From: a phage
Direction: 5' to 3' (one strand)
DNA length: 64,000 nt
Sequence record: PZ166176.1
Positions 3,006 through 45,446 of the stretch are shown here, piece after piece. Made by a program: the position numbers and the translations under genes. Numbering within the stretch: the first letter of the stretch is position 1; every line of letters begins with the position of its first letter. The notes under the pieces were generated by a model, which had not been told where the DNA came from, ran no database searches, and was given only the letters and a program-made list of their open reading frames with translations.

Positions 3006-3080
3006 GGCCCTGTAGCTCAATGGGAGAGCTGTCGGCTCATAACCGATAGGTAGCTGGATCGAAACCAGCCAGGGCCACCA
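3006..3080 (+). tRNA. tRNA with anticodon CAT (Met, or Ile2 if lysidine-modified), CCA encoded
   Basis: Cloverleaf folded by hand: acceptor GGCCCTG/CAGGGCC, D-stem GCTC/GAGC, anticodon loop CTCATAA, T-stem GCTGG/CCAGC, discriminator A, CCA. Confidence 0.8.
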
Positions 3081-3082
3081 AC

Positions 3083-3157
3083 GTCTTTATGGTGTAATGG
3101 ATAGCACAGGAGTCTTCTAAACTCTTAGTCAAGGTTCGATTCCTTGTAAAGACACCA
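3083..3157 (+). tRNA. tRNA-Arg (anticodon TCT), CCA encoded
   Basis: Acceptor GTCTTTA/TAAAGAC, anticodon stem GGAGT/ACTCT with loop CTTCTAA, T-stem CAAGG/CCTTG with loop TTCGATT, discriminator A, CCA. Confidence 0.8.
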
Positions 3158-3353
3158 GAACATTTTAACATGAATTAGCTCAAGTGATTTGAACCCACTA
3201 CTGATCATGGTGGCAGAGAATGAGGCAAGTATGTCAGACATTATAAACAAAGGCCACGGTTATATTAGAAGACATAAATGCTCGAAGAGCACCGTTCGTT
3301 GAGAACGGGGGTTGGTGGAGTCACCATTCATGGTAAAATGTTTTAAAAAACTA

Positions 3354-3383
3354 TTGACAACTAACATTATTTTATGTTAGATT
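3354..3383 (+). promoter_or_regulatory. promoter-like site (-35 TTGACA, 18-nt spacer, -10 TAGATT) with palindrome TAACAT...ATGTTA
   Basis: Same actattgacaa motif as at 2767 and 4103; lies just upstream of tRNA-Ser. Confidence 0.4.
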
Positions 3384-3391
3384 ATAAGTAT

Positions 3392-3482
3392 GGAAGGGCA
3401 AATCGACGTGGCGACGAAAACGGTCTTGAAAACCGCCGAGCTTGAAAGAGCCTTGGGAGTTCGACTCTCCCTCCTTCCGCCA
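3392..3482 (+). tRNA. tRNA-Ser (anticodon TGA), long variable arm, CCA encoded
   Basis: Acceptor GGAAGGG/TCCTTCC, anticodon loop CTTGAAA, long variable arm, T-stem GGGAG/CTCCC with loop TTCGACT, discriminator G, CCA; the D-arm is irregular. Confidence 0.7.
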
Positions 3483-3486
3483 GATT

Positions 3487-3572
3487 GGTAGATTGGTGAA
3501 ATGGTAGCCACGACAGTTTGCTAAACTGTAGTCGGAAACGGCGTGTAGGTTCGAGTCCTACATCTACCGCCA
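3487..3572 (+). tRNA. tRNA-Ser (anticodon GCT), long variable arm, CCA encoded
   Basis: Acceptor GGTAGAT/ATCTACC, D-stem GTGA/CCAC (read as in the analysis), anticodon stem ACAGT/ACTGT with loop TTGCTAA, T-stem GTAGG/CCTAC, discriminator G, CCA. Confidence 0.8.
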
Positions 3573-3578
3573 AATTAA

Positions 3579-3664
3579 GATGAGTTGGCTGAATGGTTTA
3601 AGCGGCGGACTGTTAATCCGTGTTCGAAAGAACGATATAGGTTCAAATCCTATACTCATCGCCA
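3579..3664 (+). tRNA. atypical tRNA: serine-like body (long variable arm, discriminator G) with anticodon GTT (Asn codons), CCA encoded
   Basis: Acceptor GATGAGT/ACTCATC (perfect), anticodon stem GCGGA/TCCGT with loop CTGTTAA, variable arm hairpin GTTC-GAAA-GAAC, T-stem ATAGG/CCTAT with loop TTCAAAT, discriminator G, CCA. Isotype cannot be settled by eye. Confidence 0.55.
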
Positions 3665-3671
3665 GAATTAT

Positions 3672-3750
3672 GGACTTGTAGAGTTAAGGTAAACCCCCAG
3701 TCGCCAAGAGGCTTCTGGAATTGCAGGTATCGAATCCTGCCGAGTCCCAG
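3672..3750 (+). pseudogene. degenerate tRNA-like element (no CCA, 8-nt T-loop, no clean anticodon arm)
   Basis: Acceptor GGACTTG/CGAGTCC and T-stem GCAGG/CCTGC are recognisable, but the D and anticodon arms do not fold canonically and CCA is absent. Confidence 0.3.
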
Positions 3751-3754
3751 CTTT

Positions 3755-3829
3755 GCTCCTATAGTATAATGGCTATTACAACGGTTTTGTAATCCGTGGA
3801 TCTCTGTTCGATTCAGAGTGGGAGCACCA
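3755..3829 (+). tRNA. tRNA-Thr (anticodon TGT), CCA encoded
   Basis: Acceptor GCTCCTA/TGGGAGC, anticodon loop TTTGTAA with a U-U loop-closing mismatch, T-stem CTCTG/CAGAG with loop TTCGATT, discriminator A, CCA. Confidence 0.75.
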
Positions 3830-4102
3830 ACACAACATTAAGAGCACTGTGATTGATCGTCGTATCCTGTGCACAAGGTCTGCTCGAAAGACAGTGTTCT
3901 TAGTATTGTGTTGATCACAAAAAGAGTTACCTGAAACTTGACCGGAGTAGGGTTGGATGGGGCAAAAGAAGAAGCGGCTCTCCCATCGACAGCAACGAAG
4001 AATAATATTTGACTTTGGTTTTGTATTATTTTAAGTTAGCTTACCGAACGTAGGGCTAGTCACCCAATGGGATACTCGTCACTGTCCCGCTCAATAAAAC
4101 TA

Positions 4103-4132
4103 TTGACAACCAATAGTAAAATGTAGTATAGT
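4103..4132 (+). promoter_or_regulatory. sigma70-like promoter (-35 TTGACA, 18-nt spacer, -10 TATAGT) with inverted repeat ACTATTG...CAATAGT
   Basis: Good match in both hexamers; lies upstream of tRNA-Gly and restarts transcription inside the tRNA region. Confidence 0.55.
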
Positions 4133-4143
4133 AAAGATGTAGG

Positions 4144-4217
4144 GCGTTCTTGGTGTAGCGGTAGCATTCCGTCCTTCCAAGTCGGCGGCACGAGTTCGAT
4201 CCTCGTAGAACGCTCCA
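4144..4217 (+). tRNA. tRNA-Gly (anticodon TCC), CCA encoded
   Basis: Acceptor GCGTTCT/AGAACGC (perfect), anticodon loop CTTCCAA, T-stem ACGAG/CTCGT with loop TTCGATC, discriminator T, CCA. Confidence 0.75.
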
Positions 4218-4315
4218 AATTATTTAATAAAGGGTTGCCAGAAAACTTTCTCTTTTACTCATGGTTTTCTCCTTCTCTCACACCTCTTCTGGTTGCCCTT
4301 CATTAAATGATTTAT

Positions 4316-4391
4316 TGGTTTGTAGTGTAGTCCGGTAGCACACGACACTTTGACTGTCGTAGGTTTGGTTCAAATCCAGACAGACCAGCCA
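4316..4391 (+). tRNA. tRNA-Gln (anticodon TTG), CCA encoded
   Basis: Acceptor TGGTTTG/CAGACCA, D-stem GTGT/ACAC region, anticodon stem CGACA/TGTCG with loop CTTTGAC, T-stem TTTGG/CCAGA with loop TTCAAAT, discriminator G, CCA. Confidence 0.75.
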
Positions 4392-4396
4392 TATAA

Positions 4397-4473
4397 CGGA
4401 ATTTAGCTCAGTTTGGTAGAGCATACGCTTTGGGAGCGTAGGGTCGCAGGTTCGAATCCTGCAATTCCGACCA
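4397..4473 (+). tRNA. tRNA-Pro (anticodon TGG), CCA encoded
   Basis: Acceptor CGGAATT/AATTCCG (perfect), anticodon stem TACGC/GCGTA with loop TTTGGGA, T-stem GCAGG/CCTGC with loop TTCGAAT, discriminator A, CCA. Confidence 0.85.
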
Positions 4474-4479
4474 ATCAAA

Positions 4480-4553
4480 TGTTTCGTAGTTCAATGGTAG
4501 AACCCACGACTGATAATCGTGAGACACAAGTTCGATTCTTGTCGAAACAACCA
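4480..4553 (+). tRNA. tRNA-Ile (anticodon GAT), CCA encoded
   Basis: Acceptor TGTTTCG/CGAAACA, D-stem GTTC/GAAC, anticodon stem CACGA/TCGTG with loop CTGATAA, T-stem ACAAG/CTTGT with loop TTCGATT, discriminator A, CCA. Confidence 0.85.
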
Positions 4554-4555
4554 GT

Positions 4556-4625
4556 TTCCCGTTAGACTTACAGGATAAGAGTTCCACAGCTTATTGTGAT
4601 GTTGGTTCGAATCCAGCACGGGATA
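4556..4625 (+). pseudogene. degenerate tRNA-like element (no CCA, irregular anticodon arm)
   Basis: T-arm GTTGG-TTCGAAT-CCAGC and an acceptor pairing with a 1:72 mismatch are present, but the anticodon region gives only a 4-bp stem with a 6-nt loop and ACA replaces CCA. Confidence 0.3.
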
Positions 4626-4631
4626 CATAAT

Positions 4632-4710
4632 AGCGGGATAGAGGAGTCTGGTCGTCCTCGCCAGTTTCATATGCTGGAGATCATCGGTTCAAATCCGATT
4701 CCCGCCTCCA
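4632..4710 (+). tRNA. tRNA with anticodon CAT and an A1:C72 mismatch (second Met/Ile2-type tRNA), CCA encoded
   Basis: Acceptor AGCGGGA/TCCCGCC, D-stem GAGG/CCTC with an 11-nt loop, anticodon stem CCAGT/GCTGG with loop TTCATAT, T-stem ATCGG/CCGAT with loop TTCAAAT, discriminator T, CCA. Confidence 0.65.
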
Positions 4711-4825: not shown

Positions 4826-4848
4826 AGCCTCCTTATTGGAGGCTTTTT
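4826..4848 (+). terminator. rho-independent terminator after the tRNA cluster
   Basis: Hairpin AGCCTCC-TTATT-GGAGGCT followed by TTTT. Confidence 0.75.
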
Positions 4849-44542: not shown

Positions 44543-45446
44543 ATTGCAGTCCAATAGGGGCAAATGGAATATCATCATCGAAGTCCATTGGAGGTTCTTC
44601 TTGATTACTTGGAGTTGGTTCTGGTTGTGGTTCAGGCTTCTTAACTTCTTTCTTCTCTTCTTTCTTAGGTTGTTCTGCGGAACCACGGATGGCAGCAGCA
44701 ACTTTATCAGACAGAGCCAGAACTTTACGAGCAGAGTCAATCAGATCTTCTACAGATACAGTCTTAATGGTATGGTCTTTACAAGCATTGAGGATAGCGT
44801 GACCAACAGATGCCCCAAGATCATAATCATTAATATCAACGCCACGAGATTCAGCAATTTCCGATTTCAGTGTGACAGTTGCAGATTGAACAACCCCAGC
44901 GATATCGAAAGCATCGCCTTTAACACCATTACGAATCAGTTCCAGTGCACCATTTACTGCGTGACCAGTTTCCAGACCTACAGTATCACGTTTTTTATAG
45001 GATTGCTTAGGAGCAGCATCGTTGGAACCTTTATTGCCAGAAGATTTGTTAGACTTCTGAACACCATCGGTAGACAATACTGTAATACGAGATTTTTTAG
45101 TATTGTAGTAAGTTTTACCGCCTTTATTATCAACGCGATCAATATCAATACTTACTTCTACACCTTTTTCAATAGTGATCCAATTATCACCTTCTTTGAC
45201 TTGCAGGTTTTCATAACCTTCTTTCAGTTCAATGTCACCAAGAGAAATCCAAACACCTTTCTCATCTGGTTTAGCACCTTTCTCTTTCAGAACAAGAGAA
45301 GCTCGGTGAGTTGAAACAATCGTTTTTCCTTCCCAATGAAAAGTTTTAGGTTCAGCGAATTTATCCAGTTTAACGTAGTCTACGATACCAGTTGCATAAG
45401 TTACGGTTTTGCCTTTACGATCAGTTTCAGTATTAATTACGGACAT
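44514..45446 (-). CDS. ssb: single-stranded DNA-binding protein with internal DFDDDIPF acidic tip and a 15-aa C-terminal extension
   Basis: Sequence PPMDFDDDIPF matches the conserved SSB C-terminal tip, preceded by a Gly/Ser/Asn/Lys-rich linker; the ORF continues APIGLQYGRNFLHCF past the usual end. Confidence 0.6.
   Translation of the reverse strand: MSVINTETDRKGKTVTYATGIVDYVKLDKFAEPKTFHWEGKTIVSTHRASLVLKEKGAKPDEKGVWISLGDIELKEGYENLQVKEGDNWITIEKGVEVSIDIDRVDNKGGKTYYNTKKSRITVLSTDGVQKSNKSSGNKGSNDAAPKQSYKKRDTVGLETGHAVNGALELIRNGVKGDAFDIAGVVQSATVTLKSEIAESRGVDINDYDLGASVGHAILNACKDHTIKTVSVEDLIDSARKVLALSDKVAAAIRGSAEQPKKEEKKEVKKPEPQPEPTPSNQEEPPMDFDDDIPFAPIGLQYGRNFLHCF

Follow-up and report, generated by a model that had tools for sequence, protein, structure and literature searches.

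Introduction

Phage T4 encodes two stable RNAs that are not tRNAs, species 1 and species 2 (genes rnaC and rnaD), within its tRNA cluster, at the end of the cluster and on the same strand as the tRNAs. To our knowledge, both RNAs are still without a known function. In E. coli, 3′ETS-leuZ, a by-product of tRNA precursor processing that associates with Hfq, acts as a sponge for small RNAs. In murine gammaherpesvirus 68, each TMER consists of a tRNA-like unit followed by hairpins, which are freed by tRNA-processing enzymes.

Phage lambda produces LPR2, a single defined band of ~63 nt that co-purifies with Hfq in RIL-seq, is expressed mainly in the lytic cycle and is encoded beside 6S RNA in the late operon (bioRxiv 10.1101/2024.10.31.621285). 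Its only chimeric partners are PreS and fliC, and it has no established function (bioRxiv 10.1101/2024.10.31.621285). The literature that we found on LPR2 consists of this preprint and one review.

Phage tRNA clusters are usually annotated as tRNAs separated by junk spacers. We analyzed a 64,000-nt stretch of phage DNA (sequence record PZ166176.1; here called the window) in which the spacer between tRNA-Thr and tRNA-Gly is conserved at least as well as the tRNAs. With some confidence, we propose that this spacer is functional RNA-coding DNA plus a promoter: a hairpin at its 5′ end (hairpin 1) would be cut from the tRNA polycistron as a stable, trans-acting small RNA, and a following segment (part B) would form a second structured RNA.

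The locus resembles each of these systems in part. Like rnaC and rnaD, hairpin 1 would be a non-tRNA RNA gene on the tRNA strand inside a phage tRNA cluster, a resemblance of position only. The T4 RNAs are 139 and 119 nt long and rnaC folds into a tRNA-like structure with a true T-arm, whereas hairpin 1 is a single long hairpin. When our hairpin model R1 was run with filters off on the T4 tRNA region, it found no match in rnaC or rnaD, and the best match (E 0.2) lay elsewhere. The likeness to 3′ETS-leuZ, a functional small RNA derived from the spacer of a tRNA operon, is a functional analogy. RNAs of that type are short, single-stranded trailers with a terminator at the end; they lack a long conserved-handle hairpin and any sequence relation to hairpin 1. 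The TMERs share a design in which hairpins that vary in sequence are joined to a tRNA or tRNA-like unit and tRNA processing sets one end; since they belong to a eukaryotic virus and depend on RNA polymerase III and the microRNA pathway, they too are an analogy only.

Results

The Thr–Gly spacer of a Phapecoctavirus tRNA cluster is composite

ARAGORN identified a cluster of 10 tRNAs at 3006-4710 of the window, all on the + strand. The cluster is 98-99% identical to those of phAPEC8, ECO340P2, anhysbys, Mt1B1_P17 and other phages, which assigns it to Phapecoctavirus (phAPEC8-like). In the records of these relatives, the Thr–Gly spacer is empty, carries a "repeat_region" over the promoter or is filled with short hypothetical ORFs; none of these is a credible annotation. 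The 314-nt spacer is 95-100% conserved in ~60 records, and a second group of relatives (SF1-1, EF1-1 and phiWec179/181/188) keeps all 314 nt at 84-87% identity.

The spacer, at 3830-4143, has three components: first an LPR2-type hairpin, then a further structured segment and finally a promoter. Its neighbors and the promoters are as follows.

3755-3829, + strand: tRNA-Thr(UGU), called by ARAGORN and by Rfam (tRNA, 59.5 bits); its CCA end directly abuts hairpin 1
4144-4217, + strand: tRNA-Gly(UCC), called by ARAGORN and Rfam
4103-4132, + strand: sigma-70-type promoter from a consensus scan (TTGACA, 18 nt, TATAGT; 11/12 match), kept in relatives
3354-3383, + strand: upstream promoter-like site from the same type of scan (10/12, with TG), predicted to drive a single precursor that holds the Ser-Asn-Thr tRNAs together with hairpin 1 and part B

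A further, similar promoter copy is at 2767-2796. The promoter at 4103-4132 is predicted to serve tRNA-Gly and the tRNAs downstream. A scan for terminator-like sites on the + strand found none in 3384-4143, and the terminator of the tRNA cluster is at 4826-4844. Since the promoter at 3354-3383 is followed by no terminator before 4143, hairpin 1 and part B should belong to the Ser-Asn-Thr precursor. The same scan led us to reject an intrinsic terminator or attenuator, as 3830-4143 contains no + strand terminator-like site; GAUCACAAAAAG comes after hairpin 1.

An earlier note on this DNA had described the spacer as a non-coding insert of 310 nt, free of ORFs and tRNAs, with nested inverted repeats that might form a small stable RNA. 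The absence of genes was borne out. ARAGORN called nothing in 3830-4143, the ORFs of the window that fall in the spacer encode just 20-26 amino acids, and neither ARAGORN nor the Rfam tRNA model detected a cloverleaf there, which dismisses a tRNA or tRNA pseudogene. Rfam gave no family for the window here at the gathering score or at E<=10, and 11 homologous loci were likewise empty; with Rfam 15, a 277-nt slice searched at E<=10 yielded just two matches, both at chance level (E about 5), and no family. Taken as a single 314-nt molecule, the spacer is not unusually stable (z -1.19). The folding signal is confined to discrete elements rather than spread over the whole 314 nt.

Hairpin 1 is a conserved helix on the tRNA strand

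The strongest inverted repeat, 3828-3850 with 3891-3913, has 23-nt arms that are 87% complementary. It underlies the first element, whose parts are listed below.

3830-3912, + strand: hairpin 1, a long hairpin of the LPR2 family, defined by fold, covariation and model R1
3830-3835 with 3906-3911, + strand: predicted outer stem of hairpin 1
3837-3850 with 3891-3904, + strand: predicted handle stem of hairpin 1
3851-3890, + strand: conserved insert of hairpin 1, with inner pairs 3857-59/3885-87, 3862-64/3881-83 and 3866-68/3876-78
3837-3904, + strand: predicted processed small RNA of 68 nt, putatively equivalent to the upper hairpin of lambda (63 nt, GG...CC)

On the + strand, these 83 nt fold at -30.4 kcal/mol (z -3.75), and none of 200 shuffled sequences was as stable; the minus strand of 3830-3912 folds less well (-22.7). 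The motifs that the earlier note had quoted are located about where it had placed them (TGTGATTGATC at 3848, TTGATCACA at 3911, CACTGT at 3845, ACAGTG at 3891, GATGGGG at 3956 and CTCCCATC at 3980), and its pairing of CACTGT with ACAGTG is real, forming part of the hairpin 1 stem. The nesting that it proposed did not hold up: TGTGATTGATC/TTGATCACA is a weak alternative (-18.0 kcal/mol, z -0.78) that is not conserved in relatives that keep hairpin 1. Since it shares TGT with CACTGT, this pairing competes with the hairpin 1 stem and does not enclose CACTGT…ACAGTG.

The first 85 nt of the spacer are ~82-85% identical in the unrelated Klebsiella phage SCNJ1-C, lambdoid Klebsiella prophage ST16-OXA48phi5.2 and Sashavirus BDX09P1. 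Further copies of hairpin 1 came from pattern scans, both of IMG/VR and of metagenomes; those added by the metagenome scan all belonged to the same three lineages. In an alignment of 17 distinct homologues (A4), 93.7% of cells were paired, compared to 34-46% when the partners were slid. Seven pairs were changed on both sides and none of 500 shuffles reached the observed covariation score, a signal that comes from few independent lineages (three for this insert type). Structure prediction with covariation, the check that the earlier note had suggested, came out in favor of an RNA through the z score of -3.75 and these seven pairs. Conservation across related genomes, whose lack the same note had said would count against a small RNA, was found and extends to unrelated phages.

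G.U pairs are frequent in the hairpin 1 alignment and A.C pairs are rare. Many of these G.U pairs would turn into A.C mismatches if the other strand were the RNA, so the pattern fits a + strand RNA. Model R1 scored 87.8 bits on the + strand of the window and 23.8 bits on the minus strand, and found a single copy of hairpin 1 in the window. A more divergent copy, in L160, scored 71 bits. These comparisons indicate that hairpin 1 is a conserved + strand RNA helix.

The insert is set apart from the stem. In the Sashavirus copies, the stem is fully recoded (CACCCACGAAUGAGAGUAUUGU / ACAGUAUUCUCAUUCGUGGGU) and the insert is nearly unchanged, and the invariant columns of the alignment are concentrated in the insert (GAUUGAUCGUCGU ... 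GUCUGCUCGAA). This invariance and the survival of the insert through stem recoding suggest that it is under a constraint of its own. A conserved micropeptide was rejected as the source of this constraint, as the window type and the Klebsiella type differ by a 1-nt indel within the conserved insert, which puts the reading frame out of register. Complements of two conserved loop strings were no commoner than chance within the 64-kb window, giving no antisense target there.

A constant handle carries exchangeable inserts

Sashavirus, phiWec188 and SF1-1 contain a second hairpin with the same lower stem and a different interior. When we scanned IMG/VR for the handle alone (ACAGGTAAGARCA, 30-60 nt, TGYTCTTNNCGTTGTG), at least 120 loci matched. 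Among the matches listed, there are at least 63 distinct hairpins, whose 64 inserts fall into at least 37 clusters. The largest clusters among these matches comprise 33, 30, 23 and 14 occurrences, and the insert of the window belongs to the most frequent type (the one with 33). The exact-match patterns bias this census, and its counts hold among the matches listed.

Model R1 recovers 81 copies in 74 loci. In the resulting alignment (A7), 13 of the 19 handle pairs are changed on both sides and 94.6% of cells are paired, compared to 36-66% with partners slid; as A7 was fitted to the model and leans towards structure, these figures are upper estimates. The handle contains a conserved bulged A and a recurrent U.U mismatch, and the lower stem spans about two helical turns. 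The handle alignment also contains 114 G.U cells, which would mismatch in the complementary strand.

In the window, the handle reads ACACAAC-AUU-AAGAGCACUGU on its 5′ side and ACAGUGUUCUU-AGU-AUUGUGU on its 3′ side, and thus has both the outer stem and the AAGAGCA/UGCUCUU-type helix by which the family is recognized. By these sequence features, we identify hairpin 1 as a member of a widespread, unannotated family of enterobacterial-phage hairpins. Of 5426 complete E. coli genomes, 163 contain the lambda variant (see below) and 11 the insert type of the window; neither is annotated in any of them. Among representative bacterial genomes, the pattern matched five times, each time in an unrelated non-enterobacterial taxon, and we took these matches as chance.

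A literature search for the conserved sequence strings gave no match, and a preprint on the Pas sRNA proved unrelated to the hairpin. For the architecture of the family as a whole (handle, discrete inserts, coupling to tRNA-like units, occurrence in lambda and P1), we found no description in the literature. We also considered a BoxA/nut site, as the 3′ strand of the handle, UGCUCUUU, matches the rrn boxA core. Since the hairpin holds this strand in a helix and the window has a changed version of it (UGUUCUUA), we treated the match as coincidence.

Family hairpins adjoin tRNAs and tRNA-like units

Among the matches listed, 23 of 136 loci have tRNAs within 1 kb, and in 23 of these 23 the tRNAs are on the same strand as the hairpin. 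At five loci, the hairpin begins 5 nt past tRNA-Thr(tgt); that of the window begins at the base right after the CCA of tRNA-Thr. At other loci, the 3′ end of the hairpin (GUUGUG, then G...) leads directly into the acceptor stem of the next unit, which is either a tRNA-Arg or tRNA-like; PGAP labels one of these units a pseudogenic tRNA. The P1-like phage RCS47 carries three family hairpins that alternate with tRNA-like units, directly after tRNA-Asn and tRNA-Thr. The annotation of the RCS47 record places the ORFs plp and upl on the opposite strand of this array.

Near-identical handles with exchangeable inserts in phages as unrelated as lambda, the P1-like RCS47, Klebsiella and Salmonella prophages and the lytic Stephanstirmvirinae could also be the mark of a DNA-level element, either a mobile miniature element resembling a MITE or a recombination cassette resembling attC, that inserts beside tRNA genes with the handle as its recombination site. 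Presence does differ among close relatives, and phiWec188 and SF1-1 bear an extra copy of the hairpin compared to theirs. We nevertheless consider a DNA element very improbable. The strand asymmetry (the 114 G.U cells, and 87.8 versus 23.8 bits) fits RNA, the element is always co-oriented with tRNAs where tRNAs are nearby, an RNA product has been seen in lambda, and no target-site duplications were noticed in passing in the sequences read. Exchange between phages by homologous recombination at the handles is compatible with an RNA. As to integron attC sites, which the AAC...GTT ends recall, their consensus is not present and the strand bias favors RNA.

The lambda member of the family is LPR2

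By searching the concatenated inserts against GenBank phages, we found one insert type of the family in phage lambda, at 44804-44846. Right after the tR′ terminator of 6S RNA, lambda reads CACAACAGGTAAGAGCATTGAG...CAGTGCTCTTTCCGTTGTG, and R1, which was made from copies of the window type without lambda, matches 44786-44865 (40.1 bits, E 3e-8). The LPR2 hairpin of lambda occupies 44787-44862. The upper hairpin of lambda, from GG to CC, extends from 44794 to 44856 and is exactly 63 nt long. Lambda 44816-44850, within the hairpin, is exactly complementary to the northern probe used for LPR2 (P844, Table S5; bioRxiv 10.1101/2024.10.31.621285). The probe match and the length of the upper hairpin together indicate that, in lambda, the upper hairpin is what remains after trimming and accumulates as a stable RNA. 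In the window, the corresponding product would be the 68 nt at 3837-3904.

The two hairpins share the ACAAC/GUUGU outer stem, the AAGAGCA/UGCUCUU-type handle and a structured insert of 40-45 nt, and both are located inside a long non-coding part of a polycistronic transcript, neither having its own promoter directly upstream. Their insert sequences differ and their handles are ~70% identical, so processing in the window phage could differ from that in lambda. The settings differ as well: the lambda copy is in the Q-dependent late leader of a temperate phage, follows tR′ rather than a tRNA and is followed by a tRNA-like segment, whereas the window copy belongs to a lytic myovirus of 150 kb, in whose tRNA operon it comes directly after tRNA-Thr. 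Discrete size, Hfq binding and partners are features of LPR2 in lambda and would extend to the window copy by homology only.

By this homology, the link to LPR2 supports the idea that hairpin 1 yields a real RNA, and excision as a stable small RNA is its most likely fate. The small stable RNA suggested by the earlier note thereby gains ground for the first 83 nt, through covariation, strand asymmetry and homology to LPR2, and loses it for 310 nt as one nested-repeat RNA.

The hairpin might instead act purely in cis: it could be a site of cleavage by a nuclease such as RNase III, it could block 3′ exonucleases, or it could insulate the folding of neighboring units in the precursor, and the excised hairpin would be a functionless by-product. 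Such a role would suit its frequent position next to tRNAs or tRNA-like units, right after the CCA end or right before the acceptor stem, and also a lower stem of about two helical turns in which a bulged A is conserved and a U.U mismatch occurs; other spacers of the cluster in the window form long stems too. We judge it unlikely, as the insert is the most conserved part of hairpin 1 and survives complete recoding of the stem, and as loop filler leaves unexplained the at least 37 insert clusters (the largest with 33, 30, 23 and 14 occurrences among the matches listed). Moreover, the lambda member accumulates as a defined, Hfq-bound RNA. We therefore favor a trans-acting RNA.

Part B is a second structured element

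The segment that follows hairpin 1, part B at 3930-4095, is built from several parts.

3930-3955, + strand: 5′ segment of part B (ACCnGAAACnTGACnGG..AGTAGG), predicted to be mostly single-stranded, with invariant columns across three Stephanstirmvirinae lineages
3956-3987, + strand: helix H2 (GATGGGG / CTCCCATC, 3956-3962 with 3981-3987), with compensatory variants
3991-4041, + strand: helix H3, whose sequence and length vary by lineage (z -3.04 in the window)
4043-4092, + strand: most conserved 3′ block (CCGAACGTAGG), with helices H4 (4053-55/4063-65) and H5 (4069-74/4083-88)

H2 is the second hairpin of the earlier note. Although it is thermodynamically weak alone (z -0.68), it is preserved in relatives by compensatory changes: the variants GATGGAA/TTTCCATC, GGTTGG/CCAACC and GATTGG/CCAATC occur in L011/phiWec179, Tr1, L041 and KP13-26. 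The sequence of H3 is replaced in each lineage, yet five of six form a single hairpin at the same place, the sixth (L011) having several small hairpins instead; z is between -2.4 and -4.2 in four of the six. H4 and H5 have one compensatory pair each and are 98.8% paired. For the global fold of part B, including possible pseudoknots (UGAC/GUCA), we found no convincing covariation, the covarying pairs being a handful.

Part B is also present in Citrobacter phage Tr1, in the Klebsiella phages KP13-26 and FKP3 (Justusliebigvirus) and in contigs L040 and L041. Between the window and Tr1, 42 of 48 positions are identical at 4041-4088, compared to 31 of 75 in tRNA-Thr and 29 of 74 in tRNA-Gly, so that the 3′ portion of part B is better conserved between genera than the flanking tRNAs. 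Model R2 detected the 3′ block in Stephanstirmvirinae-type loci only, and once in the window. Taken together, these comparisons suggest that part B is a second multi-helix element, specific to the Stephanstirmvirinae.

In Tr1 and L041, part B is followed immediately by a strong ribosome-binding site and a 108-amino acid ORF (phrog_8792; no Pfam match). Part B could therefore be the 5′ leader or regulatory element of a gene since lost or, given that 11 nt separate its conserved 3′ block from the -35 box in the window, a binding site ahead of the promoter, the rest being decaying tRNA-derived spacer of the kind seen in the decayed tRNA-like sequences elsewhere in the cluster. However, high identity is kept in lineages that lack the ORF (Phapecoctavirus, KP13-26, FKP3 and L040), and part B is not tied to the promoter, from which the ORF separates it in Tr1 and L041 and which is absent in L186. 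This persistence without the ORF and the separation from, or absence of, the promoter argue that part B is not simply an ORF leader or a promoter-upstream site. The helices change by compensation and no tRNA model matches part B, which further counts against a leader or decaying spacer. We rate these possibilities as improbable and continue to regard part B as a structured RNA.

A model for the spacer RNAs

Starting from the putative promoter at 3354-3383, a + strand tRNA polycistron would carry hairpin 1, which would fold so that its lower stem of ~20 bp presents the conserved 40-nt apical insert. Endonucleolytic cuts in or beside the lower stem, for which RNase III and RNase E are candidates, would release the hairpin and in doing so free the 3′ end of tRNA-Thr; in relatives, RNase P may act on the tRNA or tRNA-like unit that follows the hairpin. 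The expected product, a stable hairpin of about 65-70 nt, would work in trans through its insert, either by base pairing, in association with Hfq like lambda LPR2, or through binding of a host factor. Processing, stability and action in trans are what we infer for this phage from sequence relationships. Part B would be a lineage-specific structured RNA on the same precursor, and the promoter at 4103-4132 would restart transcription for tRNA-Gly.

More tentatively, the family as a whole may be a modular RNA system in which a near-constant handle, coupled to tRNAs or tRNA-like units, delivers any one of dozens of interchangeable inserts, which would work as small RNAs or decoys. In such a system, phages would use the tRNA-processing machinery generally to launch effector RNAs, and the operon would encode one more of these, specific to its lineage, in part B. 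This proposal is plausible to us, if somewhat short of probable. It would offer a possible cassette mechanism for swapping phage small RNAs.

The family occurs in both classic model phages, lambda and P1, and LPR2, so far one unexplained band in one preprint, joins a large group with a constant handle and many inserts. The role of non-tRNA RNAs in phage tRNA regions, a question since T4 species 1 and 2, can now be tested using lambda genetics.

Finally, we looked for tmRNA. ARAGORN calls none in the window. Upstream of the hairpin in SCNJ1-C and Sashavirus, there are weak, sub-threshold tmRNA matches with a tag-like frame, ANEDRFLMAA, to which nothing in the window is comparable.

RNA elements beside the hairpin in other phages

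The hairpin that lies directly 3' of tRNA-Thr in the window (3830-3912) belongs to a family built on a near-constant lower stem, the handle, and an exchangeable apical insert. In temperate phages, family hairpins are followed on their 3' side by tRNA-like units, segments that resemble tRNAs. These units and the other RNA features beside family hairpins are located as follows.

L029, 720-860: tRNA-like unit
L160, L080 and L046: tRNA-like units
L190 (phage lambda), 1063-1150: tRNA-like unit
L191 (P1-like phage RCS47), 1570-1690: tRNA-like unit
L191, 1479-2080 (FO818745, about 76360-76960): array in which tRNA-like units alternate with three handle-type hairpins
L017, L032 and L042 (one prophage type, found in prophage contigs and in an E. 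coli chromosome): hairpin-bearing RNA region
L006 (Klebsiella phage SCNJ1-C), 2826-2925: RNA 5' of the hairpin
L008 (Sashavirus BDX09P1), 2817-2915: RNA 5' of the hairpin

The tRNA-like unit has the form GUGGUG-AAU-[GCGCA GGCUGA UGCGC]-variable-[GCCGG AGAUCAGCA CCGGC]-CACCAC. Covariation is seen in its acceptor-like stem, which reads GUGCUG/CAGCAC in lambda and GUGGUG/CAUCAU in SCNJ1-C. Since the two loops of the unit are complementary (GCUGAU/AUCAGC) and change together, to ACUGAU/AUCAGU in L080 and L160, their sequences suggest a kissing contact like that between the D-loop and T-loop of tRNA.

The RCS47 array lies 3' of tRNA-Asn and tRNA-Thr. On the opposite strand, FO818745 carries the annotated ORFs plp (putative lipoprotein) and upl, both of which may be misannotations.

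In the prophage type, the hairpin is contained within a region of ~650 nt that has no ORF and possesses its own TTGACA promoter and terminators. This region is located between terL and the portal gene, in the opposite orientation, and a variable small gene comes after it. The arrangement resembles that of a moron.

The RNA upstream of the hairpin in SCNJ1-C and BDX09P1 starts at a sigma-70 promoter. It matches tmRNA models weakly, at sub-threshold scores of 31.9 and 27.8 bits, and contains a tag-like frame, GCAAACGAAGATCGTTTCCTGATGGCGGCGTAA, that encodes ANEDRFLMAA*; ARAGORN called no tmRNA within it. This could be a phage RNA that resembles tmRNA or derives from it.

Further RNA elements in Phapecoctavirus tRNA clusters

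Two Phapecoctavirus loci, from phiWec188 and SF1-1 (L037, 1014-1101; L034), carry an additional handle-type hairpin with a different insert; this hairpin and a ~110-nt segment separate tRNA-Thr from the window-type hairpin. Other records of Escherichia and Klebsiella phages, about 48-160 kb in length, contain this additional insert with 98-100% identity.

Two other spacers of the window's cluster are also structured.

3158-3350: spacer 3' of tRNA-Arg (-53.9 kcal/mol, z -4.43)
4218-4315: Gly–Gln spacer, long hairpin (-24.2 kcal/mol, z -5.68)

A long-range stem of 17 nt, AACATTTTAACATGAAT ... ATTCATGGTAAAATGTT, encloses the first spacer, which from its predicted fold looks like a further structured non-tRNA RNA domain that starts immediately 3' of the tRNA end. 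The Gly–Gln spacer is identical at 98/98 positions in SF1-1 and phiWec179 and at 75/98 in Citrobacter phage Tr1, and is therefore as conserved as the tRNAs.

Three segments (3392-3478, 3665-3754 and 4554-4631) are tRNA-like, yet none was called by ARAGORN. The first scores 37.4 bits, below threshold, with the Rfam tRNA-Sec model; the predicted folds of the others include an acceptor-like closure and a T-arm, which in 4554-4631 contains GGTTCGAATCC. All three may be decayed or atypical tRNAs. At about 3573-3578, between tRNA-Ser and tRNA-Asn, the window lacks ~218 nt relative to its close relatives (L001-L004), in which the missing stretch contains a tRNA-Tyr or pseudo-tRNA(GTA).

The Phapecoctavirus region also occurs, at 85-96% identity, in records named Campylobacter phage B15, Acinetobacter phage ABPW7, Pseudomonas phage PsgM04F and Dompiswa phage TSP7_1, whose host labels look doubtful.
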